Shown piece after piece: positions 46,915 through 64,000 of a stretch of DNA of 64,000 nt. The stretch is from the IMG/VR virus record IMGVR_UViG_3300044691_000591, positions 1 to 64,000 of that record, one strand, 5' to 3'. Below the pieces are notes generated by a model. That model was not told the DNA's origin. It did not search any database and saw nothing but the letters and a program-made list of their open reading frames with translations. Each line of letters opens with the position of its first letter. The stretch's first letter is position 1. Source of the stretch: a virus. The translations under genes and the position numbers were made by a program.

Positions 46915-46941
46915 CGATGCGCCAGGCGATGCGGGGTGTCC

Positions 46942-48195
46942 ATGCGCGGACTTAGCCTCGCCCTGTCCCCGAAGCAGATGGGGTTCATCGCGAACTCGAC
47001 GGCGCGCATCAACATCGCCCACGGGTCGGTGCGGTCGGGCAAGTCGATCGCGGCGACGGTGGCGTTCTTCATCGCCGTCAACGAGGCCCCGGACTCGGGG
47101 CTGGTGCTCATCATCGGCCGCTCCCTGCAGACCATCGAGCGCAACGTCCTGGACCCGATGATGGACCCGGAGCTGTTCGGGTCCCTGTCAGCGGATGTGC
47201 AGCACACGCGTGGAGCGACGACGGCAACGATCTTGGGCCGCACCGTGCACCTGATCGGCGCCTCGGATGCGCGCGCGGAGGGCCGGCTGCGCGGCCTGAC
47301 GGCCTGCCTGGCCTTGGTGGATGAGGCGACGCTGCTGCCTGAGGGCTTCTGGAACCAGCTTCTGGGCCGCCTGTCCGTGCCTGGGGCGAGGCTGCTGGCG
47401 AGTACTAACCCGGACTCGCCGCAGCATTGGCTGCGGCGTGACTTCCTGCGCCGCGAGGACACCCTGAACCTGCGCTCGTGGCACTTCACCCTGAAGGACA
47501 ATCCTTCGCTTACCCGCGAGTACGTCGACGGTCTGTCGGCGGAGTACACGGGCCTGTGGCGCAAGCGGTTCCTGGAGGGCCTGTGGGTCGCCGCGGAGGG
47601 CGCGATCTTCGACATGTGGGACGAGGACGTCCACGTCGTCGACCGGGTGCCCATCGGCCGGATCCGGCGCTGGATCGCGCTGGGCGTGGACTACGGCACG
47701 ACGAACCCGTTCCACGCAGTGCTGATCGGCATCAGTGAGGAGCGGCGCCTGTACGCGGCGGCGGAGTGGCGCTACGACTCGCGGCACATGCGCCGTCAGC
47801 TCACCGACGTGGAGTACTCGGAGCGGCTGCGCGCCTGGATGTCCGACGTGCCGCACATCGGCCCGGTGCGCCCGCAGTACGTGGCCGTGGACCCGTCGGC
47901 GGCCTCGTTCAAGACACAGCTGTTCCGCGACAAGCTGCGCCCCCACGCGGCCGACAATGCGGTCCTGGACGGCATTCGCACCATGTCGTCGCTCCTGGCG
48001 GGCCGCCAGCTCTTCGTTGACGCCTCGTGCACGGAGTTGATCTCTGAGATCCCCGGCTACTCGTGGGACGACCGCGCCCAACTGTTGGGAGACGACAAGC
48101 CCATCAAGGTCGCCGACCACGGAATCGACGGGCTCCGCTACGGCCTGATGACCACCCGGTCCCAGTGGCAGCACCAGCTCGCCCCCGCCGCCTAA
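46942..48195 (+). CDS. terL: Terminase large subunit (PBSX-like)
   Basis: GSVRSGKS Walker A, LVDEA Walker B, STNPD, GVDYG, DH.IDGLRY. Confidence 0.96.
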   Translation: MRGLSLALSPKQMGFIANSTARINIAHGSVRSGKSIAATVAFFIAVNEAPDSGLVLIIGRSLQTIERNVLDPMMDPELFGSLSADVQHTRGATTATILGRTVHLIGASDARAEGRLRGLTACLALVDEATLLPEGFWNQLLGRLSVPGARLLASTNPDSPQHWLRRDFLRREDTLNLRSWHFTLKDNPSLTREYVDGLSAEYTGLWRKRFLEGLWVAAEGAIFDMWDEDVHVVDRVPIGRIRRWIALGVDYGTTNPFHAVLIGISEERRLYAAAEWRYDSRHMRRQLTDVEYSERLRAWMSDVPHIGPVRPQYVAVDPSAASFKTQLFRDKLRPHAADNAVLDGIRTMSSLLAGRQLFVDASCTELISEIPGYSWDDRAQLLGDDKPIKVADHGIDGLRYGLMTTRSQWQHQLAPAA

Positions 48196-48214
48196 CCCCT
48201 CTTGGAGACCCGAC

Positions 48215-49903
48215 ATGCCGCTGCCCCTGGACGACGCCCCCTGGCCGCCGCCGGACCTCAACCCGGTGTGGAACTCGCTGCAGGTGTGGCACGCCTGGTA
48301 TGCGGGGCTGCCCAAGGACCTGCAGTCCGTGTACGGGGGTGTGGCCACCGCGGGATCGTCGCCGCTGGCCCGGCAGTTCTTCGACATGGACAAGCCCGGC
48401 TCCAACCAGGTGTCCGTGGTCGCGCGCACGTTCTGGGGCGAGCCGATCCCGCCTGGTGAGCGGCGCGTCAAGTTGCACATTCCGCTGCCGGGCGACATCT
48501 CGGAGCTGTCGGCGTCGTTGCTGTACTCCGAGCTGCCGCAGATCCGGGCCGCGGACACCAGCGGCCTGGGCACGGCGACGACGGACCGCATTGCCCGTTA
48601 CCTGGACGACCGTGGCCACGCCACCCTGCTGCAGGGCGCCGACACTGGCTCGGGGCTGGGCGGCGTCTATCTGCGGGTGGTGTGGGACGCGACGCTGCGC
48701 GATCACCCGTGGCTGACCGTGGTGCACCCGGACATGGCCGTCCCGGAGTGGCGCTGGGGCTGCCTCACCGCGGTGACGTTTTGGCAGACTGTGCAGCAGG
48801 ACCCGTCGGGCACCGAGGAGTGGCGGCTCCTCGAATACCACACCCCGGGCCTGATCGAGTACGGCCTGTACAAGGGATCGCTGACGGAGATCGGCGAACG
48901 CCTGCCCCTCGCCGCACACCCCAAGGGCGTGGAGCTGATGGGGCAGCTCACCGACAAGACGCCGGGCCGCGAGCAGCAGGTCACCGGCGTCGACAAGCTC
49001 CTGGCCGTGTACATCCCCAACATGCTCCCGAACCGGGTGTGGCGTACCGTGCCCGGCTCCGAGCCGCTGGGGCGCTCGGACTACACGGGCATCGAGCAGC
49101 TCTTCGACTCCCTGGACGAGACGTGGACGTCGTGGATGCGGGACCTGCGCCTCGCCCGCTCCCGGATCATGATCCCGCAGTCGATGCTGGAGACCGACGG
49201 CCCGGGGCAGGGGGCGATCTTCCGCGACAAGGAAGTGTTCGTGCAGATCAACAGCCTCGCCGACGGCACCAGCGGCGAGGCCATCACCATGAACCAGTTC
49301 CAGATCCGCGTGAAGGAGCACGAGGACACGTGCACCGCGATCGTCAACCAGGTCCTGCGGTCCGCCGGCTACTCATCGCAGTCCATGGGCGCGGACAAGG
49401 GCATGGTCGCGGTGACGGCCACGGAGATCGCCGCCCGCAAGGAGCAGTCCCTCGCCACCCGGGACACGAAGATCCTGTACCAGCGTCCGGCGCTGGATCA
49501 GGTGTTGAAGGTGCTGCTGGCCGTGGACGCGAAGTGGTTCAAGGCTGCCGTGGACCCGACGGCGGACCTGACCATCGCGTGGCCGGACGCGGTGCAGGCC
49601 GACCCTCAGTCCCAGGCCACCACGCTGTCGTTCCTGAAGGCCGCCTCCGCAGCATCCACGGACACCATGGTGCGGATGCTGCACCCGGAGTGGGAGGACA
49701 TTGAGGTCGCCGAGGAGGTGGCCCGCATCCGCGAGGAGTCCGCACCGCCGGTCACCCTCACCGCCCCTGCTGCACAGCCGACAGGGCAGGTTCAGCAGCA
49801 GGGCCAGGAACCGGGGCAGGCGGAGGAGGGCACGGCGGCCTCGGCGTGGGCGGACCAGGCCGATTCGGAGGGAGCAGCCCAGCCGGGGGCTGCGGCGGCG
49901 TAG
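48215..49903 (+). CDS. Portal protein (SPP1 gp6/A118-like)
   Basis: KLHIPLPGDI, LGGVYLR, YIPNM.P, LGRSDY, TATEI. Confidence 0.93.
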   Translation: MPLPLDDAPWPPPDLNPVWNSLQVWHAWYAGLPKDLQSVYGGVATAGSSPLARQFFDMDKPGSNQVSVVARTFWGEPIPPGERRVKLHIPLPGDISELSASLLYSELPQIRAADTSGLGTATTDRIARYLDDRGHATLLQGADTGSGLGGVYLRVVWDATLRDHPWLTVVHPDMAVPEWRWGCLTAVTFWQTVQQDPSGTEEWRLLEYHTPGLIEYGLYKGSLTEIGERLPLAAHPKGVELMGQLTDKTPGREQQVTGVDKLLAVYIPNMLPNRVWRTVPGSEPLGRSDYTGIEQLFDSLDETWTSWMRDLRLARSRIMIPQSMLETDGPGQGAIFRDKEVFVQINSLADGTSGEAITMNQFQIRVKEHEDTCTAIVNQVLRSAGYSSQSMGADKGMVAVTATEIAARKEQSLATRDTKILYQRPALDQVLKVLLAVDAKWFKAAVDPTADLTIAWPDAVQADPQSQATTLSFLKAASAASTDTMVRMLHPEWEDIEVAEEVARIREESAPPVTLTAPAAQPTGQVQQQGQEPGQAEEGTAASAWADQADSEGAAQPGAAAA

Positions 49904-51778: not shown

Positions 51779-51810
51779 GTCGGCGCCTCCCGCTGTCGGC
51801 CCGGTGGGAG

Positions 51811-52257: not shown

Positions 52258-52395
52258 GCTGATCTCCTCCACTCGGTCGAGTCGGGGGTGAACTGCGCGT
52301 TCGGCTTCGCGCGGGTCGCTGCCCTTGCTGTCGTGCTGCCAGCGTAGGGCATCAGGGGCGGCCATGGTCATCGTCGCCGGGCTGGCCGTGACATG

Positions 52396-52438
52396 CCGCA
52401 GCCCCCACTCGGCGGGGGGATGCGAGTGGGGGCTGCGG
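52396..52438. terminator. 16-bp perfect hairpin
   Basis: CCGCAGCCCCCACTCG-N11-CGAGTGGGGGCTGCGG. Confidence 0.55.
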
Positions 52439-52548
52439 TGCACGGGTGTACCAACCGTGCACCCAGCATGCCCGGTTGCGGGGCACACCGTGGGCGAATC
52501 ACGCTGTTTCTGCTGCGCCGTCGGTGACTTGGCGTCACGATGGGGCGC

Positions 52549-52710
52549 ATGGAGACCGTCGTGACGGTGCAGGCGCGCAGCGAGGCCGAGGCTGAGCGGT
52601 GGCTGGAGAAGCTGCGCACGATCGGACTGGAGCCCGTGTCGGCGCCGAAGCAGCCGGTGGGGCGCGACAGGTGGATGGTCCGCGCCCGGCCCGCGACTCA
52701 GCCAGGTTGA
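52549..52710 (+). CDS. 53-aa hypothetical protein (below ORF-track cutoff)
   Basis: METVVTVQARSEAEAERWLEKLRTIGLEP...RWMVRA; GC3-rich. Confidence 0.5.
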   Translation: METVVTVQARSEAEAERWLEKLRTIGLEPVSAPKQPVGRDRWMVRARPATQPG

Positions 52711-52898
52711 TCGACGCGACTGCCGCTGTCCACGTCCACGCCGATCTTCTGCAGCTTCCCCCCGAACGACACCGTCGCGTTGACCACCGTCCCGCCGTCG
52801 GCCCCGGTCCGCATCGCGTCCTGCACGAACGCGGCCACCTCGTCCAGCGTCAGGAACTGGCCTCTGTCGGCCGCGTGCTCGACCTTCTTCTTCGCCAT
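52698..52898 (-). CDS. Hypothetical protein
   Basis: 66 aa, RBS GAGG. Confidence 0.6.
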   Translation of the reverse strand: MAKKKVEHAADRGQFLTLDEVAAFVQDAMRTGADGGTVVNATVSFGGKLQKIGVDVDSGSRVDQPG

Positions 52899-52947
52899 GC
52901 CCTCATCCTCTCGCGTCCACCGCGCCACCGTCCGGCGGTCGCGGGCG

Positions 52948-53580
52948 TCAGTGCCACGGTGCGGGGCCGGTCCGGGACGCCCAGGCGGCCAGGGCCTGCT
53001 CGTCGAACAGGCGCAGCCCGACGCGCCGGCCGAACGCGGCGGCCTGCTCGGTGAACGTGGACGTCGTCACCACTGCGGCGAGGTCTGCGCCGTGGATCTG
53101 CCGGTACGTGCCGTTGACCGCCTGCACCATCGGGGAGCGAACCGGGTTGCCGACGGCGTAGCGCTTGGCCTGGATCAGGATCCGGCGGCCGTCCGGGGTG
53201 GTGGCCAGTACGTCGGCGGCGAGGTCTCCTGCTCCGCCGACGACGGTGACGTTGCGGCAGCCGTCGCGGCGGCACAGGTCGGCGAGGGCGTGCTCGAACT
53301 GGGTCGGGCTGAGCCGCCGGAAGTCCATGACGGGGCGCCGGCAGTAGGGCGCGATGGTGCGGCGCTGAGCGCGGTGCATCTTGATGTACACGAAGCCAAT
53401 GGCGGTGGTGGCTGCGATTGCCGCAACGCAGATCATGATCTGCGGGTGCCGGGAGAGCCACAGTGCGGCGTCGAACAGGATCAGGGCGGCAATGATCAAC
53501 ATGGGGCCGGTGATCCGCTGGCGCTGTACGCGCCTGCGCAGTTGGGCTTTCGCCTGGCGCACGCGGAGAGGTGTGGTCAC
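52948..53580 (-). CDS. Membrane-anchored Mrr-family (PD-(D/E)XK) endonuclease
   Basis: Two TM helices then LSPTQFEH..ADL, GGAGDLAADV, IQAKRY, VVTTSTFT. Confidence 0.88.
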   Translation of the reverse strand: MTTPLRVRQAKAQLRRRVQRQRITGPMLIIAALILFDAALWLSRHPQIMICVAAIAATTAIGFVYIKMHRAQRRTIAPYCRRPVMDFRRLSPTQFEHALADLCRRDGCRNVTVVGGAGDLAADVLATTPDGRRILIQAKRYAVGNPVRSPMVQAVNGTYRQIHGADLAAVVTTSTFTEQAAAFGRRVGLRLFDEQALAAWASRTGPAPWH

Positions 53581-55844
53581 GACTGGCTCATCTCGGGGAC
53601 AGGCAGCCCGTACTCGCCGCTGGCGGCCGGGTTGCGGAGGATGGTGCCGTCCTTGACCAGGCGGCTGACCGTGTTCTCGACCGTCTTGCGGGCGACACCG
53701 GACTGGTCCGTGATGGCGTCCAGGTGCAGGTAACCGACGTCCAGACCGATCGGGTCGCGGTACTCGCCCAGGACCGTGAGGATCTTCTCCTGCGCCGTCG
53801 GCTCCTTCGCCGCGGCCGGCTTCGCCTGACCGGGCGTCCACTTCGCGGCGCCGTCCTCATCCTCGTCTTCGGCGGCTGGCCCGACGGGGACCAGCGCGAT
53901 CTCGCCGCGGTCCTCCCACTCGGGCCAGTCGGCGGGAATGACGATCTGCTCCGGATCGAACAGGCCGGCGGCGGACTCCAGGATCCACAGGCGCATCATC
54001 TCGGCGCGGTCGTCGGGCCCGACGGTGTAGCCGACGCCGAACGTGCGGCTGGGGTCGTCGTCGGGGACCGTCGGGTCGTAGATCAGAGTGTCGTCCTCGT
54101 CGCTCTTCCAGAACGCCGGGATCTTGGCGGGGTCGACGCCCGCGAACGCGTCGGGCAGGTCGACCCGGTTCCTCTGGTCGCTGTCGGAGCGCAGCAGGAT
54201 CAGGGCGCCGCCGTAGAACACGTTGTCGCGGATGGAGGTGTCCGAGCCCATCTTGTCGAGGTTCAGGATCTGCCCGCACAGGATCAGGATCAGGCCCAGT
54301 GAGCGGCCCTGCTCGGCCAGGGCGGCGATGATGAATGCCGCCTCGGCCTTGTTGGTTGCCTTCTCGCCGAGGAGCTGGGCGAACTCGTCCAGGACCACGG
54401 CGGTGTAGGGCATGTCGGCGGTCGGGACGAAGTTCTTCATCCGCAGCCGCTGCGACTGCTCGACGCGGTGCAGGAGGAGGGCGTAGGCCACGCGCAGGGC
54501 GCCCATCGCACCGTCGATACCGCAGCCGGGGTAGGTGGCCATGTCCTCGACGTCGGGGTTGCTGGAGCCCTTGGGGTCGGCGTAGATGATCGCGACCCGG
54601 TTGACGTGGTAGCTGAGGCACAGGAGCTGCAGCGCCCCGCCCTTCCCGGAGCCGGTCACCCCGGCGATCAGGACGTGCCGGGCGCCCATCCTGGTGTCGT
54701 ACAGCTGCACGCGGGCAGGGCGGCCGGAGATGCCGGTACCCAGGTTCACGAACCCGTTGGCGTTGGCGAGCAGCGTCTCGGGGCCAGGCAGGGGCTGGCC
54801 GGCTTCCAGGGGTGAGCGGTCCATGAGCCGGAGCTTGGCCCGGCGGGGGTTGTTCGTGGGTTCGACGGACGTCAGCAGGGTGGTGGTGCGAAGTGCTCCG
54901 GCGATGCGGTATGAGTCGGGGGCGGTGACGGCGTCGGTGTCCTCGTCGGCGACGACCCATGCGGCGATGCCACCGGTTGCAGGGTCGGGGACGATGCCCT
55001 CCAGGTGGGTGCCGGGCATGCAGCCGCCCTTGTGGCCCACACGCCGCAGCCACAGTGCCTCCAGGGCGCTGTACTCGGCCACGTCGACGGTCGGCGCGAC
55101 CACGTCGACGTGGATGTGGCGAGAGCTGGTGTGCGGACCGTCAATGAGGTGGACCCGCGCCTCGGGGACGCCGTAGACCCCGGACACGGTCTCGGCGGTG
55201 ACCGAGACGGGGCGGCCGGGCATCGAGTGGATCGTGCCCTCCCACGCCTCCGGGCTGTAGCCGGTCAGGGTGAGGTGCTGGCCGGGGTGCGCGCCGTCCT
55301 CGCTGGAGATCCAGTCGTGCCAGTACTGCAGGACGTCGCGCTCCGGCGTCGGCTCTGGGACTGGGGCGGCGGGCGCGCGGTAGGCGGCGACCGCGCGGGG
55401 CTTGCGCAGGACGCGGCGCAGCGCGAAGTGGATGTAGCCGGTCGCGGACCACCAGGCCACCGACACAAAGCCGGCCACGGAGGGCAGCGTCATCCAGCCG
55501 GCGGCCAGGGAGTCGATTCCGGGCCAGCCGTACTGCGTCGCGGTGGCCGCCGCGGTGGCGGTCGCGATCGCGGAGACCAGGAACGGCTCGCGGTGGGCGC
55601 GCACGATGTCACCGCCCGGCAGGGCGTCCAAGTGCTCATCGGACAGCAGGTGCATGTAGTTCGCGCCGGCGGCCAGGGCGGGTACGGCCAGCAGGCAGCT
55701 GACGGTACTCGCGGCCTGACCGTCCAGCAGCGGCAGGGTCAGGGCGGTCGCCAGCGGGGCGGCGACCTGAGCCACGGCAAACCGCTTCTCGGCGGCAGGG
55801 TTCGGCAGCGCCTTGGCCGCGGGCGTGGTGTCGTTGGTGGTCAC
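53577..55844 (-). CDS. TraB/FtsK-SpoIIIE-like DNA translocase
   Basis: N-terminal TM helices; HVLIAGVTGSGKG Walker A; ADPKG; VVLDEF Walker B; EQGRSLG; C-terminal winged helix (TVENTVSRLVKDG). Confidence 0.88.
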   Translation of the reverse strand: MTTNDTTPAAKALPNPAAEKRFAVAQVAAPLATALTLPLLDGQAASTVSCLLAVPALAAGANYMHLLSDEHLDALPGGDIVRAHREPFLVSAIATATAAATATQYGWPGIDSLAAGWMTLPSVAGFVSVAWWSATGYIHFALRRVLRKPRAVAAYRAPAAPVPEPTPERDVLQYWHDWISSEDGAHPGQHLTLTGYSPEAWEGTIHSMPGRPVSVTAETVSGVYGVPEARVHLIDGPHTSSRHIHVDVVAPTVDVAEYSALEALWLRRVGHKGGCMPGTHLEGIVPDPATGGIAAWVVADEDTDAVTAPDSYRIAGALRTTTLLTSVEPTNNPRRAKLRLMDRSPLEAGQPLPGPETLLANANGFVNLGTGISGRPARVQLYDTRMGARHVLIAGVTGSGKGGALQLLCLSYHVNRVAIIYADPKGSSNPDVEDMATYPGCGIDGAMGALRVAYALLLHRVEQSQRLRMKNFVPTADMPYTAVVLDEFAQLLGEKATNKAEAAFIIAALAEQGRSLGLILILCGQILNLDKMGSDTSIRDNVFYGGALILLRSDSDQRNRVDLPDAFAGVDPAKIPAFWKSDEDDTLIYDPTVPDDDPSRTFGVGYTVGPDDRAEMMRLWILESAAGLFDPEQIVIPADWPEWEDRGEIALVPVGPAAEDEDEDGAAKWTPGQAKPAAAKEPTAQEKILTVLGEYRDPIGLDVGYLHLDAITDQSGVARKTVENTVSRLVKDGTILRNPAASGEYGLPVPEMSQS

Positions 55845-55848
55845 AGTC

Positions 55849-56217
55849 CTACTCCTGCCGGTACCAGGTGCGGTTGGCCATCTCGACGGGGGAGCGGTCG
55901 CGGGCTTCCTTGATGCCGCCGTGGGTGGTGACGGTCGCCTGCTCGGCGGCGACCGCCGCGCGGGATGCCTCGTCGGCGGCGTTGGCGTAGGCGAGCGCGG
56001 CCGTGGACACGCCCTGCATGATTCGCGAGACCTCGCGGGTCTCGGCAACGGTCGCCGGATCGACCTTGAGGGCGGCGGTCTGCTCGGCGATGCGCCCGGT
56101 GTCCTTGGCCTGGGCGTCCATCGCGGAGGCCATCTTCTTGTGCCTCTGGGTGGCGCGCCGCACGTCCCGGGCCAGGGCCCGCGTCTCGCGCAGCAGTTCG
56201 CCATAGGTCAGTGCCAC
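55849..56217 (-). CDS. Small helical protein upstream of TraB
   Basis: 122 aa, ends HGGIKEARDRSPVEMANRTWY. Confidence 0.75.
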   Translation of the reverse strand: MALTYGELLRETRALARDVRRATQRHKKMASAMDAQAKDTGRIAEQTAALKVDPATVAETREVSRIMQGVSTAALAYANAADEASRAAVAAEQATVTTHGGIKEARDRSPVEMANRTWYRQE

Positions 56218-56218
56218 G

Positions 56219-57886
56219 TCAGCCCCCCTGCTTGTCCATGTAGAACTCCCGCTCGGCGGGCGTGGTCAGAGGCGAGTCGACGACTGCCCGATAGATGCCG
56301 CCGTGCCGGGTCTCGGCGTTGGCGGCCAGGACGCGCACCGCTTCACTGCCGCGCTGGGCGCTCTTCTCGATCTCCTCGGCCCTCAGGCGCAGCACCTGGG
56401 ATCGTTCCGCGAGGCGCGACAGAAGCGCGACGATCCGGGCACCCCCATGGACGCTCTTCGCGTTCTCGGCCAGGCGCTGCGCCCGGGTCGCCATCTCCAC
56501 GGCCTGCAGGCGGGTGGCCTTGCTGCCCTCGGCGACGCGGCCCATCGCGGCCTTCTTGTCACCCAGGCGGCGTTCGAAGGCCTTGAGGGTGCGGACCTCG
56601 CCGCGGCTCATCGTGTGGCTCGCCCCGTCGGCGACGAACTCGACGGCCTTGTCTCCGACGGAGGTCACCCGTGCGGGCTCTGCAGCAGTCGGGGCCGGCT
56701 TCTTGGCGAGGTCGACGGTCGACCCGCTGGCCGGCGGCAGCTTCGGAGCGGCTGACTTCTTGGGCTTGACGGCGTTGCGGGCCCGGGTGTCGCTCATCTT
56801 CTTGCCCTCCGCCTTGTCGGCGGCGGTGCGGTCGTCCCAGCCGTCGACAGCGCCGTCCTTGTAGGCCCTGGCCTGTCCGACGGTCGCGGCGACGCGGGTG
56901 CCGTCGCGGTACCCGGCCTCCCGCGCGGGGCGGGTGCGCAGCTTCGGAGCGGCGGCCGGCTCGGTTGTCGCGGCCGGGCTCGGCTTGGCCGCGGCGCTGG
57001 TGTCCTTCACCAGATCGACGGGCGCAGTGTCGTCGGGCTTGATCGCAGCGGCGGTCTTGGTGTTCAGGCTCTTCGGGTCGGCCTTCTTCGTCAGGTCCGG
57101 TCCGTCGGGGCGCGCGGCAGCGGGCGTCGAGGGTTCCGGCGTCTTGGCTGCGGTGCCGCCTTTCGCGCTCGCGGGCCCCGCGGTCTTGGCGTCCGCCCCC
57201 TTGGGGCTCGGGCCCTTGGCGGTCTTGGTGTCGCGGTAGTCCCGGTCGTCGTTCTTGGAGACCGTGTCCGCTGTCGCGGCCTTCGCGTTCGACGTCTTCG
57301 CGGCGCTACTGTCCGCCTTCTTCAGATCCTTGTTGTCCCGGGCTGCAGTGTCGGCCTTCGACGTCCTGGCGTCGGAGGTCTTGGCGTCCGTCGCGGCCTT
57401 GCGGTCGCGGTTGGTCCTGCCCTGCTGCGTCTTGTTCCGGAGGTCGGCCAGCTTGCTGTCGCGGGTGGCGTGGGCCTTGCCGTCGTGCCGGTGCGTGCGC
57501 TCGGCCTTGTTCGTGCCGGTGCTGGTAGCGCCGGAGACCCGGGCCTCAGTGATGGTGTGGGTCCGCTTGACCGCTGTACCGCCGCGGGCCAGCCGGGCGG
57601 CCAGGGCGTGCACCAGGGCGGCCACGGCGCTGCCGCGGTTGTTGTCGCCTGGACTGGCCTTGCCGTTCTTGCCGTTGCCGCCCTTGGCGCTGGCCTCCTC
57701 GGAGACCTCGCCCATGGTCGCCGTGGTCCCCAGCGGCTTCACCGGCCGGGCGGGCTCGACCGGCGTCAGGATCCGCGCAAGCGGGCCCGGCGCCGTGGCC
57801 GGGGCGGCTGCAGCAGCGGGTCCTGCGGGCGCGGCCGACTGCTCGGTCACACCGGCCGGGACGGGCGGCGCGGTCGCTGTCGCCAT
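56219..57886 (-). CDS. Large low-complexity K/A/T-rich protein with C-terminal helical domain
   Basis: REAGYRDG motif; ends HGGIYRAVVDSPLTTPAEREFY; RBS GAGGAG. Confidence 0.75.
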   Translation of the reverse strand: MATATAPPVPAGVTEQSAAPAGPAAAAAPATAPGPLARILTPVEPARPVKPLGTTATMGEVSEEASAKGGNGKNGKASPGDNNRGSAVAALVHALAARLARGGTAVKRTHTITEARVSGATSTGTNKAERTHRHDGKAHATRDSKLADLRNKTQQGRTNRDRKAATDAKTSDARTSKADTAARDNKDLKKADSSAAKTSNAKAATADTVSKNDDRDYRDTKTAKGPSPKGADAKTAGPASAKGGTAAKTPEPSTPAAARPDGPDLTKKADPKSLNTKTAAAIKPDDTAPVDLVKDTSAAAKPSPAATTEPAAAPKLRTRPAREAGYRDGTRVAATVGQARAYKDGAVDGWDDRTAADKAEGKKMSDTRARNAVKPKKSAAPKLPPASGSTVDLAKKPAPTAAEPARVTSVGDKAVEFVADGASHTMSRGEVRTLKAFERRLGDKKAAMGRVAEGSKATRLQAVEMATRAQRLAENAKSVHGGARIVALLSRLAERSQVLRLRAEEIEKSAQRGSEAVRVLAANAETRHGGIYRAVVDSPLTTPAEREFYMDKQGG

Positions 57887-57908
57887 CACGGACTCCTCTC
57901 TCGATTGA

Positions 57909-58014
57909 CCCCCCACCCACCCCCCACCCGACCTGAGAGAACAGGGTCGGGGCTCTGACCTGCACGGGAGAGCCGTATGCGCGCTCTCTTGGCGGGTGGG
58001 GGGTGGGTGGGGGG
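57909..58014. repeat. Perfect 22-bp G/C-tract inverted repeat, 62-bp spacer
   Basis: CCCCCCACCCACCCCCCACCCG (57909-57930) / CGGGTGGGGGGTGGGTGGGGGG (57993-58014). Confidence 0.9.
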
Positions 58015-58020
58015 AGATGA

Positions 58021-58590
58021 CTAACGGCTGCGTGCGGTCAGCAACTTCTTCGCCTTGCCGCCGACCAGCACGACACCGATCGACCCCAGGACGATCAGCC
58101 CGACGTTCGAGCCGGTCCCCGCCCCACCGCCGGTGCTGCTGGTGCTCGACGCGTCGGCCAGGGCGGGCGAACCGGTCGCCGGGTAGATCGAGCCGCAGTC
58201 CGACACCCCGCCGAAGTTGTTGCCGGCCTTCGCGATGCACGCCTCCACCGCGAGACGACGAGCCCGCTGAGCAGGGGTTTCCTGCGCAGCGGCCTTCGCC
58301 TGGGCGGCGGCCTGCTGCTCCTGGGCCAGCTGCACCCTCGCCGCATCCACGGCGACCTGGCCGGCGCGGATATGCGCGTTGGCCTGGTTGGCCTCGTACT
58401 GCGACCACGTGAACATGCCAGTGGCCGCCACGGCCGCGAAGCCAAGACCGAGACCGGCCTTGGCGCGAGGGCTGAGCTTGGCCGGCGGCGGGGGCTCCGT
58501 CGGCTTCGGCGTCTGGTAGGGCTGATAGGGCATCGAGCTGATGTTGTAGCCGGGATCGTTGTAGGGGGACTGGTAGCGGTACTCGGTCAT
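58021..58590 (-). CDS. Two-TM membrane protein with extracytoplasmic coiled coil (Spd-like position)
   Basis: TM, Q/A coiled coil, Cys pair, second TM, basic tail. Confidence 0.75.
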   Translation of the reverse strand: MTEYRYQSPYNDPGYNISSMPYQPYQTPKPTEPPPPAKLSPRAKAGLGLGFAAVAATGMFTWSQYEANQANAHIRAGQVAVDAARVQLAQEQQAAAQAKAAAQETPAQRARRLAVEACIAKAGNNFGGVSDCGSIYPATGSPALADASSTSSTGGGAGTGSNVGLIVLGSIGVVLVGGKAKKLLTARSR

Positions 58591-59486
58591 TGCTCTTCTC
58601 CATTCAGGGCTGGGACATCTGCGCGGTCGAGGATCTCCGCGCGGATCGTCTTCGCGACGGTGTCCGAAGGCAGCCCGTGGCCGGCTCGGTCGATCGCTTG
58701 GGCGAACTCGTTGGCGGTCGGCTGGCGCCGGAGGCGTTGGAACTCGGCGTGGAAAATCGGCTTGGCGATCTCCACCCACTCGTCGAGTGGGCGACGGGGC
58801 GGTCGCTTCCCGGCGGCGGAACGGGGCGCCTTCGGTCGACGAGTCGTCGGCGGCTTGGCCGGCTTCTCGTCGACGGAAGGTGCGTCGGAACGGTCGACGG
58901 AAGCCGTCGGGTCGTCGACGGTTCGGGCCGGTTCCGACGCGACGGGAAGCGTCGGTTCGACGCCGCTCCCGTCGACGGGAGCCCGTGTTCCGTCGGTCGT
59001 TCCGTCGTCGGCAGCGGACTGATCCGTCGCAGCATCCGTCAATGACTCGGTCGGCTCCCGTCGCGGGGTGAGGAACTTCTTGATCTGTCCCATGAGGACT
59101 GCGAATGACAAAAGCGCGCCGCAAGGTGGGACCGCTGCGACGACGTAGGTCATGGGCGCGGCGCCTGCTCCGACGCCGGCAACGTTGAGGGCAACGGAGC
59201 CGACGGAGCCGATCAGAGTCAGGCAGATGGCCCACCCGTCAGTCCGGCGGAGCAGGTTGGCGACGAGGACCATCACCTCGCCGAGGACGATGAAGGTGTC
59301 GACGGTGCCGGGCCACGCCCAGGCGCGAGCTGCTCTGAGGCCGTGGCCGCTGGCAACGTCGTGGAGGTGCTCGTAGGAGAGCCAGAACGCTGCGGCGGTC
59401 AGGGCGATGGAGAGGATGACCGCGAGCAGCATGAGGCGCCGGATAGTCTCCGGCGAAGCGACGGGACTGTCGTCGGTCTCGGTCAT
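58587..59486 (-). CDS. DUF2637 (Spd-like) membrane protein with C-terminal helical DNA-binding-like domain
   Basis: AFWLSYEHLHDVA...RAWAWPGTVD...SVALNVAGV...AAVPP; four TM helices. Confidence 0.85.
   Translation of the reverse strand: MTETDDSPVASPETIRRLMLLAVILSIALTAAAFWLSYEHLHDVASGHGLRAARAWAWPGTVDTFIVLGEVMVLVANLLRRTDGWAICLTLIGSVGSVALNVAGVGAGAAPMTYVVAAVPPCGALLSFAVLMGQIKKFLTPRREPTESLTDAATDQSAADDGTTDGTRAPVDGSGVEPTLPVASEPARTVDDPTASVDRSDAPSVDEKPAKPPTTRRPKAPRSAAGKRPPRRPLDEWVEIAKPIFHAEFQRLRRQPTANEFAQAIDRAGHGLPSDTVAKTIRAEILDRADVPALNGEEQ
58869..59063. repeat. Oriented CGACGG repeats converging on an 18-bp palindrome
   Basis: GTCGACGG at 58869, 58893, 58914; CGACGGGA at 58940; GCTCCCGTCGACGGGAGC at 58965-58982; inverted copies at 58988, 59000, 59022, 59034, 59056. 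Confidence 0.7.
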
Positions 59487-59488
59487 GG

Positions 59489-60379
59489 TCAGCTCCCCTG
59501 CTTGGCGGCGGTGAGCGCCTGCTCGTTGTGCCCCCGGATGAAGTCGGCCAGGGGTCCGGTGTTCTCGAACCACTCGGTGCTGCCGACGCGCTGGTCGGCG
59601 AAGCGCTTGTGCATGGCCTGCTCCATGCGGCGGTCACCGGCAATGAGCAGGACGATGTCGCTGGTGCGCAGCGAGAGGGCGCTCACCCGGGCGCGGAGGC
59701 TGCTGGTCGTGCCGATCTTGACGCGGCTGCCGTTGCCGATGAAGTAAACGTGGGCCTTGTGCTTGCCCTCCGGGACCGGCCAGTTGAAGCGCGGCTCTGC
59801 CGGCTTGGCAGCCATGGGCGCGGTCGCCGGCGCGTCGAGGTTGAGGTGGGCGAGCGCAGCCAGCCGCCTTTCCAGCCGAGCCTTCTGCCTCTTCGCTTCG
59901 AGCGCTACGCCGCGCTGCTTGTTCCGCTCGATCAGGAGGTGGTCGATCTCGGACTGATCGTCCGGGTGCAGGGACTGGGTCTTCATCCAGGCGCGCCACA
60001 GCCACGTCACGGGGATGGCGAGCATCGAGATCACCGCGCCGTCCCAGGGTCCAGTGCGAGGCCAGCCCGTCCAGGTGATCAGCGAGAGGATGATCACCTG
60101 GAGCAGCAGACCGCCGCGGCGGCCGAGAAAGGCGCCCTCGGAGTCGTAGCGGTTGTCCCACTCGACCCAGGCGCACCAGAGCCAGAGCAGGCCAAAGATG
60201 CCGCCGGCGAGATACATCTGGACTTGGTCCTGCCACGTCTTGGCCCATGGAGCGAGCAGGGACCCAAGGAGCCCCGCCTCGCAGGTGGCAGTCACGAACA
60301 TCAGGACGGCGGTGATCCATCCGGTGACTGCTGCCTCGTGGTCGCGGGACTCCTTGGTGGGCTGCTCGATCGTGCTCAC
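59489..60379 (-). CDS. Four-TM membrane protein fused to a GIY-YIG/T5orf172 nuclease domain
   Basis: HVYFIGNGSRVKIGTT...R...E..MHKRF...EWF. Confidence 0.82.
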   Translation of the reverse strand: MSTIEQPTKESRDHEAAVTGWITAVLMFVTATCEAGLLGSLLAPWAKTWQDQVQMYLAGGIFGLLWLWCAWVEWDNRYDSEGAFLGRRGGLLLQVIILSLITWTGWPRTGPWDGAVISMLAIPVTWLWRAWMKTQSLHPDDQSEIDHLLIERNKQRGVALEAKRQKARLERRLAALAHLNLDAPATAPMAAKPAEPRFNWPVPEGKHKAHVYFIGNGSRVKIGTTSSLRARVSALSLRTSDIVLLIAGDRRMEQAMHKRFADQRVGSTEWFENTGPLADFIRGHNEQALTAAKQGS

Positions 60380-60518
60380 GTGTTGCTGCTCCTATTCGGG
60401 CGACGTGGATGCGTGCTCTGCGGGGTGGCGCCCGTCCCGCCGGGGGTGCGGGCCGGGCGCCGGGCGTCCAGTCCGGCCGCGGGGGACGGAATCGGGCTGG
60501 ACGCGTCTTGGGGCTGCC

Positions 60519-60743
60519 TCAGTGGCTGAGGCAGCGGTCGTGGTTGGACATGGTGCAGGCGGCGCGGCGGGCGCGGCGCTGGGGCATGATCTCGGCGTAG
60601 TAGGCGTCGGAAGCCTTCTGGCGGGCGGCCGCGTCGGCGGCTTGGCGCCGGTTGTCGGCGGCGGCTTCCTGGCGGCGCTTCTCGGAGTCGTGGTAGCTGG
60701 TGTCGGTGGCGGGTGCCTTGGGTGCGAACGGGTTCCAGGCCAT
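60519..60743 (-). CDS. Hypothetical protein
   Basis: 74 aa, RBS GGAGG. Confidence 0.65.
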   Translation of the reverse strand: MAWNPFAPKAPATDTSYHDSEKRRQEAAADNRRQAADAAARQKASDAYYAEIMPQRRARRAACTMSNHDRCLSH

Positions 60744-60746
60744 GCG

Positions 60747-61067
60747 TCAGTCCTCCATTGCGGTGAGCTGGGGCAGGTGTCCGCCGTTGAGTTCCCGCAG
60801 CTGGTTGAGGGCGGTGCGGAAGGCGTCGGCGGCGTCGGGGCGTTGGGCGTAGCTGGCGTCGACGAGGTTCTGGGCGAGCTGGTTGACGCGGGCGACGGCG
60901 GCGGTGACCTGGTCGCGCTTCTCTTCGGCCTGACTCGCGAGCCAGAGGGCGTGGAAGTCGACGGCACCGTCGGCTGCGGTGTACTGGTCGAGGACGGCTT
61001 TGATCTCCGCGTCGGTGGCGGGGCGTCCGCCGGGCTGGTCTGCGCTGTAGATCGTGGGCTGGGTCAT
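60747..61067 (-). CDS. Hypothetical helical protein
   Basis: 106 aa, ATGA-coupled. Confidence 0.65.
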   Translation of the reverse strand: MTQPTIYSADQPGGRPATDAEIKAVLDQYTAADGAVDFHALWLASQAEEKRDQVTAAVARVNQLAQNLVDASYAQRPDAADAFRTALNQLRELNGGHLPQLTAMED

Positions 61068-61207
61068 CGGTGGGCCTTCTTCGTGGCGTGCACGGTCGGG
61101 TGGCTGGGCGCGTAGGTGTGGGCGCTGGCGGTTCCGGCGTGGCTGTAGCACCAGATCGCGGCGCCGATGATCGCGGCGACGGCGCACTTGGCGAGGAAGG
61201 CCCTCAT
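61064..61207 (-). CDS. 47-aa putative secreted peptide (below ORF-track cutoff)
   Basis: MRAFLAKCAVAAIIGAAIWCYSHAGTASA-HTYAPSHPTVHATKKAHR; ATGA overlaps at both ends. Confidence 0.65.
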   Translation of the reverse strand: MRAFLAKCAVAAIIGAAIWCYSHAGTASAHTYAPSHPTVHATKKAHR

Positions 61208-61617
61208 CGCGCACCGCCTGCCTGGTTGTAGAGCACGGCACCGTCGGGGTAGCTGAGGCCGTAGGCGGCGGCGAGTTTGCGGGCCATGTCTTCGACGCCG
61301 TCCTCGAAGCCGTCCGCGTCTTCGCTGCCGGTGAGGTAGTGGTCGACGTAGGTGAGGAGCACGTCCTGGGCGGTGTCGTTGTCGGCGTCGAGGGCGTCTC
61401 CGAGGTAGGTGAGTGCGGCGTTGAGGGTGTCGGCGTGGTCTTGGTCGCTGGCTTCGAGGTGGTCGCGGGCGGCGGTGAGGAGTTCGGCGAGGGTGACGCC
61501 GTCGATGTCGGTGTGGCCGCCGGGTGGGCAGCCGGGGGCGAGGAATGCGATGTCGTTGGCGTGGCGGGCGATGATCGCTTTGAGGCGGGGGCTGGCGTCC
61601 GGGTCGGTGGCGGTCAT
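61204..61617 (-). CDS. Acidic hypothetical protein
   Basis: 137 aa, D-rich, coupled. Confidence 0.65.
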   Translation of the reverse strand: MTATDPDASPRLKAIIARHANDIAFLAPGCPPGGHTDIDGVTLAELLTAARDHLEASDQDHADTLNAALTYLGDALDADNDTAQDVLLTYVDHYLTGSEDADGFEDGVEDMARKLAAAYGLSYPDGAVLYNQAGGAR

Positions 61618-61865
61618 GCCGGGCTCCCGAGCTGGTTGGGCTCCAGGGAGAAGAACAGGACCGTCGGGGGCTGGCCGCCAGTGGCGTCCTTCATCACGAA
61701 GGCGCGGACGACCTCGTACACCTCGGCGCGGGTCTGGCCCGGCTCCGGGGTGAAGGTGGAGCGCCAGGTGCCGGAGATTTCGCCGTCCCGGGTGGGCCAC
61801 TGTGCGGACATGACCCAGTGGTGGCTGCCCTGCGGGTTCGGGCCGGGAGGCGTCGGGGTGCTCAT
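61614..61865 (-). CDS. Small protein, paralog 2 (VLFFSL motif)
   Basis: HWVMSA...GTW...YEVVR...VLFFSLEPNQLG. Confidence 0.7.
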   Translation of the reverse strand: MSTPTPPGPNPQGSHHWVMSAQWPTRDGEISGTWRSTFTPEPGQTRAEVYEVVRAFVMKDATGGQPPTVLFFSLEPNQLGSPA

Positions 61866-62098
61866 GCCGCACCGCCGATGGCGTCCGGTGTGAGCGAGAA
61901 GAACAGGACGACGAACTCGGCACTGCCGATCTTGTCGGCCACGATGTCGCGGATGACGTTGTAGCTGCTGGTGTGGGTGTGCATGCCGGGGACGGCGTTG
62001 ATCGATCCGTCGAAGGTTCCCTGGAGTCCACGGGGCGATAGGGCCGTCATGATCCAGTGGAGTTCGATCTCGGGGAGCCCTGCCTCGGCGGCGTTCAC
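61862..62098 (-). CDS. Small protein, paralog 1 (VLFFSL motif)
   Basis: HWIMTA...GTF...YNVIR...VLFFSLTPDAIG. Confidence 0.7.
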   Translation of the reverse strand: MNAAEAGLPEIELHWIMTALSPRGLQGTFDGSINAVPGMHTHTSSYNVIRDIVADKIGSAEFVVLFFSLTPDAIGGAA

Positions 62099-62334
62099 GC
62101 CGCACCGCCGGGCAGGTCCTCGCCGAACGCCCGGTCGGCCGCGAACTGGAACCGGTCGTAGCTGCCGTAAGCCCCGAGGGCGTGGTCGACGTCAGCGTCG
62201 GTGGGCCAGGTGGCGGGGACCTCGGTGAGCGGACGCGACGGCGGGGCCGGAAGGGCGGTGACCCGAGCGCCGGAGCTGGGCTCTGACGGCGAGGGGGTGA
62301 CGTGGTCAATGAGGTTGGCGCTACGATCTGCCAT
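62095..62334 (-). CDS. Hypothetical protein, first gene of the transfer-like operon
   Basis: 79 aa, RBS ACAGGAAG. Confidence 0.6.
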   Translation of the reverse strand: MADRSANLIDHVTPSPSEPSSGARVTALPAPPSRPLTEVPATWPTDADVDHALGAYGSYDRFQFAADRAFGEDLPGGAA

Positions 62335-62368
62335 GTTCGCTTCCTGTTCAGAGCAGGTGGCGGATGTA

Positions 62369-62472
62369 CTCAGCCCGGTGTGCAACCACCGGATTGAGGT
62401 TGGGCCGCCGGGTGTGCAACCACCCGGCGGCCGTTCTGCGGCCCCGATCCGACTGCAACACCGGATTGGGGC
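62369..62472 (-). promoter_or_regulatory. Three tandem hairpins with identical GUUGCA loops in the 5' leader
   Basis: Stems 62369-62398, 62403-62432, 62441-62472; loops TGCAAC (+ strand) at 62381, 62415, 62454. Confidence 0.85.
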
Positions 62473-62491
62473 TTTGTGTTGTGCGGGTTCC

Positions 62492-62521
62492 AACATACGC
62501 AGACCCGATTGACCGCGTCAA
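62492..62521 (-). promoter_or_regulatory. Promoter TTGACG-N18-TATGTT with palindromic operator
   Basis: TTGAC-CGC-GTCAA (62509-62521) overlaps the -35 element; divergent from an HTH gene. Confidence 0.65.
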
Positions 62522-62544
62522 CAAGGTACGGGAGACTTCACCAT

Positions 62545-62814
62545 ATGCCGACGACCTCCACCGGAGAGGAGCACCCCGACCTGATGACCATTCCGGAGAT
62601 CGCCGCGTACAAGGGCCTCACCCGGCAGCGGATCCACAAGCTGGCCACGACCGATCCGAACTGGCCAGCCCCCGCGATTCAGGCAGCCAGGACTCGTGTC
62701 TACCGGCGCACGGACGTCGACTTGTACTTCGAGACGCGCCAGGTCAATCCGGGACGCCGCACGGATCTGGAGTCGAAGCCCGACGCCACCCCACCGTCCG
62801 AGCAAGGAGCCTGA
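62545..62814 (+). CDS. AlpA/excisionase-like HTH regulator
   Basis: LMTIPEIAAYKGLTRQRIHKLA...WPAP...PGRRTDL. Confidence 0.8.
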   Translation: MPTTSTGEEHPDLMTIPEIAAYKGLTRQRIHKLATTDPNWPAPAIQAARTRVYRRTDVDLYFETRQVNPGRRTDLESKPDATPPSEQGA

Positions 62815-62816
62815 TC

Positions 62817-63068
62817 ATGTCCGCCCGCTGCGACTTCACCGACCTGCCCGTAGACCAGTGCAGCCACTGCCTGAAGCAGCCCGACCCGGAGCGGGAGGAG
62901 CGCCGCGAGCTGGCCGCGCTGCTCGGCCGGCCGGGTTGGGTCGCGTCGTCGTTCCGTGGCCAGTGCGGGCATTGCGGGGAGTGGTACGGGGCTGGGATGC
63001 CGATCCATATTGCCCGGGATGAGCGGGCCTGGGTGGGCGGCTGCTGCGCGGACGTGTTCCAGCAGTAG
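62817..63068 (+). CDS. Cys-rich zinc-binding protein
   Basis: C..TDL..DQCSHC, CGHC, CC. Confidence 0.7.
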   Translation: MSARCDFTDLPVDQCSHCLKQPDPEREERRELAALLGRPGWVASSFRGQCGHCGEWYGAGMPIHIARDERAWVGGCCADVFQQ

Positions 63069-63081
63069 CCCGGGCATGCAG

Positions 63082-63114
63082 GAGCGCCCCCGACCGCGAT
63101 GGTCGGGGGCGCTC
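63082..63114. terminator. Hairpin between convergent genes
   Basis: GAGCGCCCCCGACC-gcgat-GGTCGGGGGCGCTC. Confidence 0.7.
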
Positions 63115-63126
63115 TGTCGTGCCGTC

Positions 63127-63396
63127 CTACCCGAGCTTGCTCCGCCCGGTCTTCCCGCGCTGCGCGGGCGCCTTGCCGGCGCGCCTGGGTCCGCGGGTGC
63201 GGGGCTTGATCATGCCGTCGGCGAGGTTGATCCCGGGCAGTGCTGCAACGGCGGCGGGATGGTTGGGCTGGCAGGTGGCGCAGAAGATCTCCGACGCCGG
63301 TCCCTCGGGGTAGGTCATGGTCGAGGGCGGCAGGTAGTGGTTGCCGCAGCGCTCGTCCTGGCAGACGAAGATCCCGCGGGTGATGTCGTCGGTCAT
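63127..63396 (-). CDS. Small zinc-binding protein with basic tail
   Basis: C....C, CATC. Confidence 0.6.
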   Translation of the reverse strand: MTDDITRGIFVCQDERCGNHYLPPSTMTYPEGPASEIFCATCQPNHPAAVAALPGINLADGMIKPRTRGPRRAGKAPAQRGKTGRSKLG

Positions 63397-63548
63397 CCGA
63401 TCCTCCCGGATCCGCCGCAGCTGGAGCAGGTGCCGTAGGTGTGGTGGGCGACGGGCACGGTCTCGCCCTTCTCGTTGATCTCGTAGGTGTATTCGACCTT
63501 GGGTGTCTGGCCGCTTCCGCCGCACGCCGAGCAGGGCTGGTCGGGCAT
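63393..63548 (-). CDS. 51-aa DnaJ-type zinc finger protein
   Basis: CSACGGSG...CSSCGGSG. Confidence 0.7.
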   Translation of the reverse strand: MPDQPCSACGGSGQTPKVEYTYEINEKGETVPVAHHTYGTCSSCGGSGRIG

Positions 63549-63675
63549 CGTCGCCTCCGAGGGTTGAGGTCTATCCACGGTAGCGGCGCCGGGGCTGGCA
63601 GAGGAGATGGTCACCCGAACGTGAGCGGCGCGCCCCGTGCCCCTTCGTTGTGCTCGACGCGCGCCGCAGGACAGG

Positions 63676-64000
63676 CTAGCGGGGCGGGTCGTCGTCGGTG
63701 GCGGGCCCGATGTGCGTGGGTGGGGTCACGCCGGCCTGGCGGTAGGCCTCGCTGAGCGCGGGGGAGAGGCGGATCTCGCCCGATAGCGTACTGCGGAAGT
63801 GTCGGCGGCCGGGCGGCTTGGCGCGGGACTCGAAGGCGTTCCAGTACTCGCCGTCGTCGTCGGGCGGCACGTGCAGTGGCCGGTTGCCCTCGGCCCAGTC
63901 CCAGACGCGCTCGGCCTCGTTCATGTAGTCCGAGATCAGCACGATGCGCCCCTCGGCCGTCGGCGGTAGGAGCAGGGCGGACGGCGGGACGTCGAAGACC
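63676..64000 (-). CDS. C-terminal part of a probable XRE regulator (starts beyond the window)
   Basis: VFDVPPSALLLP...WDWAEGNRPL pattern typical after an XRE HTH. Confidence 0.55.
   Translation of the reverse strand, partial: VFDVPPSALLLPPTAEGRIVLISDYMNEAERVWDWAEGNRPLHVPPDDDGEYWNAFESRAKPPGRRHFRSTLSGEIRLSPALSEAYRQAGVTPPTHIGPATDDDPPR

Follow-up and report, generated by a model that had tools for sequence, protein, structure and literature searches.

Can a tailed phage that makes virions also pass from hypha to hypha by conjugation? The question is raised by the stretch of DNA shown above, 64,000 nucleotides (nt) long (the window), which comprises bases 1-64000 of the 84,849-base (84.8-kb) IMG/VR record IMGVR_UViG_3300044691_000591. 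In it, an operon for a TraB-like translocase of double-stranded DNA (dsDNA) and its companions lies among the genes of a siphovirus-type phage. The gene content and the context of this operon are secure. As to their meaning, we judge the balance to tip, without great force, toward a phage that took up a plasmid-derived cassette for Streptomyces-type dsDNA conjugation and that would spread both by virions and by conjugation without lysis. The adjoining control and replication block, with its XRE-type helix-turn-helix (HTH) gene, HTH_17 gene, iterons, and DnaB, was probably taken up as well.

A transfer operon in a complete phage genome

The record has a CheckV completeness of about 94% and no terminal repeats. 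Because its guanine-plus-cytosine (GC) content is about 70%, genes were called by codon-position GC, which gave 134 genes in the record. The element is a temperate siphovirus-type actinophage of about 85 kb and of soil origin; its host is most likely a member of the Streptomycetaceae, with Streptacidiphilus or Kitasatospora favored. Its head and tail genes encode a major head protein, a scaffold-like protein, a MuF-like minor head protein, a major tail protein, a tape measure of 1696 amino acids (aa), Dit, and minor tail proteins. These are accompanied by genes for TerL, the portal, and RecT/YqaJ and, for lysis, a holin and a GH25 lysin.

Between the TerL and portal genes on one side and the XRE/HTH_17/iteron/DnaB block on the other, the region from 52.7 to 62.5 kb forms a single minus-strand run, most of it translationally coupled (Table 1). 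Five of its junctions are 4-nt GTGA/ATGA overlaps, four measure 1-4 nt, and three are gaps of 104-139 nt. Such overlaps and short junctions, together with a promoter match, agree with the preliminary description of this DNA, which had proposed a leftward coupled run from a promoter near 62500 down to 52948. The run probably extends past that point to g073, a homolog of which, 70% identical, adjoins the Mrr gene in the viral contig G009. At the other end, the annotated start of the first open reading frame (ORF), at 62496, overlaps the -10 box of the promoter, and the true start is therefore probably further down. The two small proteins encoded at 61862-62098 and 61614-61865 are 35% identical (E = 3e-10), as expected of the helical paralogs that had been predicted there. 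A plus-strand ORF at 61435-61893 was dismissed as a shadow of conserved minus-strand genes.

More broadly, the preliminary description had read the locus as a complete tailed phage with a Streptomyces-type TraB/DUF2637 transfer operon, comprising a translocase with transmembrane (TM), P-loop, and winged-helix parts, a DUF2637 membrane protein, and two nucleases, all beside intact head, tail, and lysis genes. Gene content, domains, and contiguity bear this out, and the virion and lysis genes amount to a full siphovirus-type set.

Table 1. Positions in the window of the transfer operon, its candidate signals, and the neighboring phage genes
Feature	Position	Strand	Evidence or remark
Large serine recombinase, sole recombinase of the record	14862..16442	+	Resolvase, Recombinase, and Zn_ribbon_recom domains
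TerL and portal	46936..49903	+	Terminase_6N, SPP1_portal; convergent with the operon
g073 (76 aa), with which the run probably ends	52698..52928	-	19-nt gap after Mrr
Membrane-anchored Mrr_cat (type IV restriction-fold) nuclease	52948..53580	-	Pfam 6e-24; PADLOC mREase_IV; 2 TM
TraB-like FtsK/SpoIIIE-family dsDNA translocase, 755 aa	53577..55844	-	Pfam, NCBIfam, motifs, structure model, Foldseek
g076, 122 aa, directly upstream of TraB	55849..56217	-	32/36 loci, 40-80% identity
g077, 565 aa, conserved TraB partner	56219..57916	-	Present in 34/36 TraB loci
C-rich inverted repeat, 31-nt arms	57909..58014	.	g078-g077 gap; candidate clt, operator, or attenuator
g078, 189 aa, C-terminal TM, conserved module member	58021..58590	-	Homolog in 18/36 loci
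DUF2637 membrane protein (4 TM), Spd-like candidate	58587..59486	-	PF10935, 56.8 bits
GTCGACGG word cluster, five copies, weak clt candidate	58869..58971	.	Inside the DUF2637 gene
TM protein (at least 2 TM) with C-terminal T5orf172/MUG113 (GIY-YIG-like)	59489..60379	-	Pfam E about 1e-6
Pair of small genes (106 aa, 74 aa) without family	60519..61067	-	3-nt junction
137-aa protein, no family	61204..61617	-	Coding pattern of third-position GC; 4-nt overlap with upstream gene
Small protein, 83 aa	61614..61865	-	Paralog; relatives with 69% identity in G007, 41% in G008
Small protein, 78 aa	61862..62098	-	Paralog of next gene; GTGA/ATGA coupling
First ORF, up to 133 aa, no family	62095..62496	-	Stop overlaps next start by 4 nt; no Pfam match
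Sigma-70-like promoter TTGACG-18-TATGTT	62492..62521	-	Consensus match; sole promoter-like match in 50-64 kb
XRE-type HTH gene	63676..64000 (runs to 64227)	-	HTH_17 gene, iteron-bearing ORF, and DnaB beyond

The TraB-like translocase and its partners

The assignment of the translocase draws on its domains, its motifs, and its predicted fold. Specifically, its FtsK_SpoIIIE domain (PF01580) scores 34.8 bits against a Pfam cut-off of 24, and all of the 18 homologs compared have an unchanged Walker A motif (AGVTGSGKGG) and Walker B motif (LDE), with Gly rather than Ser/Thr following the Walker lysine. In an AlphaFold2 model (mean predicted local distance difference test score, pLDDT, 67.6), four long N-terminal helices (residues 16-146) are followed by a beta-rich middle part and a RecA-like core. 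A hydrophobic segment lies at residues 22-40, and the N terminus is predicted to be membrane associated. At the C terminus the model has a winged helix (helices at 684-694, 708-715, and 719-732 plus a beta wing; pLDDT about 80), which is predicted to be the DNA-recognition domain. The residues of its recognition helix are conserved, and some homologs add FtsK_gamma. A search against TraB and FtsK families, as had been suggested beforehand, upheld the FtsK motor: the best folds in the PDB by Foldseek were FtsK motor domains (E about 2e-8), then TcpA, then EccC. TcpA is an FtsK-like conjugation coupling protein. The best NCBIfam family was plasmid_TraB (NF041214), but the match spans the ATPase core alone and missed the equivalog cut-off of the family.

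The neighbors of the translocase strengthen the resemblance to a transfer operon. The match of the DUF2637 protein to PF10935 lies above the cut-off of 22.8 bits, and the protein has four TM-like segments, a C-terminal half of low complexity, and about 50% identity to DUF2637 proteins on 7-kb Streptomyces plasmids. For g077, no match was found in Pfam, NCBIfam, or PHROG and no TM segment was predicted; the Atlas gave a weak lead to a TraA-like domain (0.77). The trio g077-g076-TraB is kept in 32-34 of the 36 loci compared.

The two nucleases that had been noted in the operon are the Mrr_cat protein, both TM segments of which are N-terminal, and the C-terminal T5orf172/MUG113 domain of the protein at 59489-60379. 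Among the 36 loci, Mrr occurs in the window and in four viral contigs only, and it is absent from a soil variant (X3) and from the plasmid copies of the cassette. Both membrane nucleases are variable cargo, possibly with a role in exclusion or restriction.

With these proteins at hand, one could suppose that the module is not intercellular and that it moves phage or prophage DNA across septa within one mycelium or excludes incoming DNA with its nucleases. Spd-type proteins are known for intramycelial spread (PMC2440964), Mrr has a type IV restriction fold, membrane-anchored nucleases adjoin the translocase, and the TraB core weakly matches the PADLOC ATPase mad8. However, PADLOC found no coherent system among the operon proteins: its matches were generic domain matches only (the mad8 ATPase core and mREase_IV), and the other eight proteins gave nothing, on which grounds we rejected a defense-system reading. 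Furthermore, most copies of the cassette have no Mrr, and the home of the cassette is conjugative plasmids, with proteins annotated for conjugative DNA transfer. We consider a purely intramycelial or defensive role improbable.

Soundness of the assembly

Since the record was assembled from a metagenome and lacks terminal repeats, one might suspect that a phage contig and a plasmid contig were fused near 52.5 kb, a chimera of which the preliminary description had warned. Against this, an independent 36,624-nt Logan contig from a soil-metagenome run (X1) covers 48226-64000 with 0 differences, a stretch with the portal at one end, the XRE gene at the other, and the whole operon in between. The sequencing run of a second sample, which belongs to another study, likewise tiles 45000-64000 with 0 differences and even depth. 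In addition, two viral contigs, G008 and G009, independently place TerL near the same cassette. With two independent samples and shared synteny in relatives, the suspected chimera is effectively refuted already, and we attach next to no probability to it. As a separate observation, the X1 contig terminates exactly on the final base of the record, 84849 (48226+36624-1); this end may therefore be a true terminus or a repeat boundary.

Recurrence of the cassette in plasmids and viral contigs

TraB matches 150 plasmids of Streptomyces and Kitasatospora, many of them 85-93 kb long, and its closest homologs include P0003 (88%) and P0037, the latter on a Streptacidiphilus chromosome. On the Kitasatospora indigofera plasmid NZ_CP108209 (TraB 67% identical), the order DUF2637-g078-g077-g076-TraB is the same; the operon there has a divergent GntR gene at its head, ParAB after TraB, and a DnaB helicase nearby. 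On an 85-kb plasmid of S. californicus (46% identity), the genes for terminase, portal, capsid, tail, and lysis come directly downstream of the operon, and the plasmid also carries ParAB, DnaB, and a tyrosine recombinase. Species-representative genomes gave 32 full-length relatives of TraB. Of their loci, at least 10 in Streptomyces have pZL12-type TerL, portal, and major capsid protein genes within 10 kb after TraB; in the Kitasatospora loci, no virion genes were found within that distance.

Viral contigs tell a similar story. The cassette is present, with 66-76% identity, in four IMG/VR contigs. One of them, G008 (IMGVR_UViG_3300044977_000094), has in common with the window the cassette, TerL, portal, major capsid protein, lysin, DnaB, and the XRE/HTH_17 pair, the last being 71-73% identical and likewise beside the module. 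In G009, TerL lies about 9 kb from TraB, and G006 and G007 have ParB and no integrase. A survey for co-occurrence of TerL and TraB, which had been proposed beforehand, thus found adjacency in the Streptomyces loci and on the S. californicus plasmid, and both genes in G008 and G009.

G008 is peculiar in its own right. This 175-kb contig has related TerL regions at two places, 62.4 kb and 156.4 kb, and also encodes ParB and two recombinases, one of the serine and one of the tyrosine type. We considered that a 94-kb circular unit had been assembled twice and rejected this, because the DNA identity between the two TerL regions is only 81%; they therefore represent two related phage-like segments.

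Since the cassette recurs in plasmids, plasmid-phages, and viral contigs and is absent from the nearest relative of the virion module, it is an exchangeable, plasmid-derived accessory module that is gained and lost, and not a fixed trait of this type of phage. That nearest relative, G001, is a provirus of 80.8 kb that bears a tyrosine integrase at its end and whose TerL is 74% identical to that of the window.

Candidate sites of DNA recognition

If the cassette transfers DNA, its translocase should have a site to act upon. Because the recognition helix of TraB is nearly invariant, a recognition word common to the family would be expected. The top 8-mer cluster of the record is GTCGACGG, with five copies in about 100 nt, and a 210-nt stretch has 11 occurrences of its CGACGG core where 0.63 would be expected. 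Nonetheless, we rejected the GTCGACGG/CGACGG cluster (58.87-59.06 kb) as a clt. Its forward copies share one codon phase (V-D), and it is not common to relatives, which have other low-complexity coding repeats in its place. The GAAGCC-type clusters that the relatives do have in common resemble low-complexity coding repeats. In a variant contig, X4, the segment 58782-59055, which holds the cluster, is swapped for 281 other letters.

A better clt candidate is the C-rich inverted repeat between g078 and g077, with arms at 57909-57939 and 57984-58014, within the 104-nt gap. Folded as RNA, it reaches -83.2 kcal/mol (z = -7.1). The core of its arms, CCCACCCACCCCCCACCC / GGGTGGGGGGTGGGTGGG, is near-identical in eight loci with flanking proteins 45-67% identical, and the inner stem varies yet stays complementary; in one plasmid, matching changes occur in both arms. 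In addition, the 13-mer GGGTGGGGGGTGG is confined to the g078-g077 junction across 192 fetched loci and the window. The repeat was not found in the more distant Streptomyces clade. Judged by its sequence, this hairpin is a new candidate cis site and may be a recognition site for TraB, an operator, or an attenuator.

Recombinase, replication block, and maintenance

How the element is maintained bears directly on how it could be transferred. The large serine recombinase lies outside the cassette, 37 kb from tra. No tyrosine integrase or second integrase was found in the whole 84.8-kb record, and neither RepAM nor a Prim-Pol above the cut-off was found in it, the part from 64 to 85 kb included; PF09250 gave a sub-threshold match of 16 bits, and PF12307 had no match in the record, a weak negative, since its control was silent too. 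Around the module (about 49-64 kb), no att-like direct repeats bounding it were found. The earlier statement that the window has no second integrase or RepAM thus holds for the whole record, and neither the sequence beyond 64000, where int and rep genes of an actinomycete integrative and conjugative element (AICE) had been suggested, nor the flanks of the module point to such an independent element. Given these whole-record searches, the lack of att-like repeats, and the independent contigs with zero differences, a nested AICE and a chimera are both unlikely. We did not accept the tRNA-Ser (anticodon act) that ARAGORN called at 9837-9929 as linked to an att site; the RecT gene (9426-10382) contains it entirely, and the call is probably false.

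Past 64 kb follow the remainder of the XRE HTH gene, an HTH_17 protein, a 296-aa ORF (64606-65496), DnaB, and small phage-type genes. The 296-aa ORF had no family match. Four AATCGCTCG iterons at 64900-65007 lie within or next to this ORF, just upstream of DnaB. Iterons beside DnaB look like a plasmid-type origin adjoining the transfer operon.

These features allow two accounts of maintenance. The element could be an extrachromosomal conjugative plasmid-prophage like pZL12, with the serine recombinase serving resolution or another role. The DnaB/iteron replicon of plasmid type beside the cassette is consistent with this, as are the ParB-bearing, integrase-free relatives G006 and G007 and the fact that most TraB relatives are on replicons of plasmid size (85-100 kb). 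On the other hand, the recombinase has the full domain set of a large serine integrase, and neither ParA (AAA_31) nor ParB (ParB_N) was found in the 94%-complete record, although positive controls worked. A further point against this account is the position of the integrase in mid-record; the record is therefore not a cut-out provirus. We regard a pZL12-like plasmid-prophage as possible, at clearly less than even odds. Alternatively, the element could be an integrative conjugative phage, an "AICE with capsid," in which the serine recombinase is the integrase, TraB pumps the excised dsDNA, and the CCCACCCACCCCCCACCC / GGGTGGGGGGTGGGTGGG repeat is a new type of clt. This proposal we offer tentatively.

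A proposed mechanism and the points against it

Based on homology, conserved linkage, and the precedent of pZL12 and pFP4, we think it somewhat probable that the complete phage circle travels from hypha to hypha by means of the cassette. In the mechanism we propose, the genome of the lysogen would be circular, either because the serine recombinase excised it or because the DnaB/iteron replicon maintained it as an episome. A membrane-anchored TraB hexamer would bind a cis site by its C-terminal winged helix, the best candidate for such a site being the C-rich inverted repeat at 57.9-58.0 kb. TraB would then pump unprocessed dsDNA into a contacting hypha, and g076, g077, g078, and the DUF2637 protein would serve as accessory and Spd-like spread proteins, carrying the DNA through septa. 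Once in the recipient, the element would integrate or replicate.

Several observations weigh against a conjugating phage of this kind. First, the score of TraB is 46.8 bits against an equivalog cut-off of 800 bits for plasmid_TraB, so the protein is a distant TraB-like lineage and not an equivalog, and its similarity to pZL12.71c, the experimentally studied Tra protein of pZL12, is not significant. Second, no 8-bp array of TraB recognition sequences (TRS) of the known kind was established, the GTCGACGG cluster being unconserved. Third, classic systems tame tra with a GntR Kor-type regulator, and no such regulator (PF00392) was found in the record, although the positive control worked. Because ParAB was not found either, stable episomal life is doubtful. 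Finally, G001 carries no TraB cassette, and in the X4 contig position 52988 runs straight into 58606, so that Mrr through g078 are left out; this joint is moderately secure, having a side of 41 nt and coming from a diverged relative. With the closest virion relative lacking the cassette and a soil variant that has seemingly lost TraB through g078, the cassette is dispensable and could be decaying cargo.

The last of these points lead to a rival explanation, namely, that the cassette, either alone or within a unit of about 52.7-66.9 kb that includes the XRE/HTH_17/iteron/DnaB block, rides along as a passenger, either a plasmid fragment or a nested mobile element, useless for the spread of the phage and possibly being lost. 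Besides G001 and X4, the loss of Mrr in X3 (52989-53575) fits such a history. So does the presence of DnaB near the transfer operon, which is typical of plasmids, and the record is over twice as long as its nearest relatives by TerL, SV1-like Streptomyces phages of 37-40 kb (60% identity). Yet all genes of the cassette are intact and tightly coupled, and the cassette has no flanking repeats, no integrase of its own, and no Rep of its own (RepAM and Prim-Pol were searched). Moreover, the adjacency of TraB and terminase persists across lineages with proteins 45-76% identical, which argues for selection, and a functional TraB would, in cis, carry along the entire circle that bears it. We consider the passenger explanation unlikely and prefer that of a phage that would use its cassette for transfer.

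Other features of the phage genome

Three further features lie among the virion genes and their surroundings. Between the portal gene and the operon, 50534-51778 encodes a 414-aa virion-structural-like protein (phrog_2804), in which six 60-nt (20-aa) tandem coding repeats occur at 50.7-51.2 kb. On the plus strand at 24486-29370, between the lysis and tail-fiber genes, lie genes for a glycosyltransferase, a methyltransferase, and an NAD-dependent epimerase; this block may modify a glycan of the virion or the cell wall. The tape measure (34804-39894) has C-terminal segments that resemble an endolysin and a transglycosylase (phrog_971, phrog_12661).

Implications

Phages that also conjugate blur the boundary between virus and plasmid. 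Hosts without the phage receptor are within their reach; they can pass through a mycelium that stays alive and have two routes for carrying cargo. The TraB/g076/g077 cassette is portable: it is found with at least two unrelated virion lineages and with three modes of maintenance, that is, in ParAB plasmids, in ParB-bearing viral contigs, and in an integrase-bearing phage. The adjacency of TraB and terminase is common in Streptomyces genomes. The conserved DNA element between g078 and g077 offers a concrete candidate for the transfer origin of this clade of TraB proteins. If the integrative conjugative phage were true, the life style of the conjugating plasmid-phages would extend to phages that integrate into the chromosome and to a second, unrelated virion lineage.

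Comparison with known systems

The closest functional precedents are pZL12 (Zhong et al. 2010, J Bacteriol 192:3747) and pFP4 (Chen et al. 2012), for which the literature describes both conjugation as episomes and the making of infective particles (PMC4170104, PMC3583192). The element pSLE1 is reported to be syntenic with pZL12 (PMC4487206), and PhiNon1 is a pZL12-like element that integrates too (PMC5431353). Listed as "Streptomyces phage ZL12" (GQ919031), pZL12 is a circle of 90,435 bp with an FtsK-like gene and two large genes beside its terminase. What the phage of the window has in common with pZL12 and pFP4 is that one element of about 85-90 kb bears a complete virion module of the siphovirus type and, beside the terminase, an FtsK-like tra locus. 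Transfer of SCP2 and pZL12 is described as requiring the main tra gene together with two genes next to it (PMC3583192), a requirement that the conserved trio g077-g076-TraB echoes. At the level of sequence, however, the two differ. Only 3 of the 134 record proteins match pZL12 by BLAST, none of them from the tra or virion core, and the Tra protein of pZL12 has no Pfam match. It is too different to be recovered with the TraB of the window, which is why a search of a phage collection gave no match at 1e-5, although pZL12 was included. Furthermore, pZL12 carries ParAB, a tyrosine recombinase, and a GntR regulator, whereas the record studied here has a large serine recombinase and none of those; its packaging block is inverted relative to the operon, and its cassette is flanked by proteins with Mrr and T5orf172 nuclease domains.

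By TraB lineage, the resemblance is closer to two groups of plasmids. In the pZL12-like plasmids of about 85-93 kb (for example, S. californicus NZ_CP070261, S. leeuwenhoekii pSLE1 LN831788, and an 89.7-kb plasmid of S. ambofaciens), a TraB of this lineage (42-48% identity) and homologs of g076 and g077 stand directly upstream of terminase, portal, and capsid genes. Unlike the phage of the window, these plasmids have a virion module of the pZL12 type, ParAB, a tyrosine recombinase, and a divergent GntR gene, and they lack both the C-rich hairpin and Mrr. The Kitasatospora plasmids hold the closest named relatives of TraB (65-67% identity) in the full DUF2637-g078-g077-g076-TraB order, share the C-rich inverted repeat, and have a DnaB helicase nearby. 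They differ in that no virion genes were found within 10 kb, ParAB follows TraB directly, and GntR heads the operon.

AICEs range from 9 to 36 kb, are bounded by direct repeats, encode RepSA, RepAM, or Prim-Pol and usually Kor regulators, and have no capsid, tail, or lysis genes (PMC2440964, PMC9513070, PMC3218068). Like AICEs of the pSAM2, SLP1, and pMEA300 type, the element has an integrase (a serine enzyme in some AICEs), a replication function, a TraB-type translocase, and presumed prophage-like maintenance. Unlike them, it is 85 kb long and has a full virion module, no GntR, and an integrase that is distant from tra, and no RepAM or Prim-Pol was found in it. Its translocase shares with the canonical TraB proteins of pSVH1 and pSG5 a membrane part, an FtsK-like motor, and a C-terminal winged helix; it departs from them in that the family match is confined to the ATPase core, in the Gly after the Walker lysine, and in that an 8-bp TRS array was not identified. 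Taken together, these comparisons indicate that the concept of a conjugating phage is not new, having already been established by pZL12 and pFP4, which both conjugate and make infective particles. What differs from the known elements is the apparent integrase-based maintenance, the SV1-like virion module, and the flanking nucleases of the phage described here.

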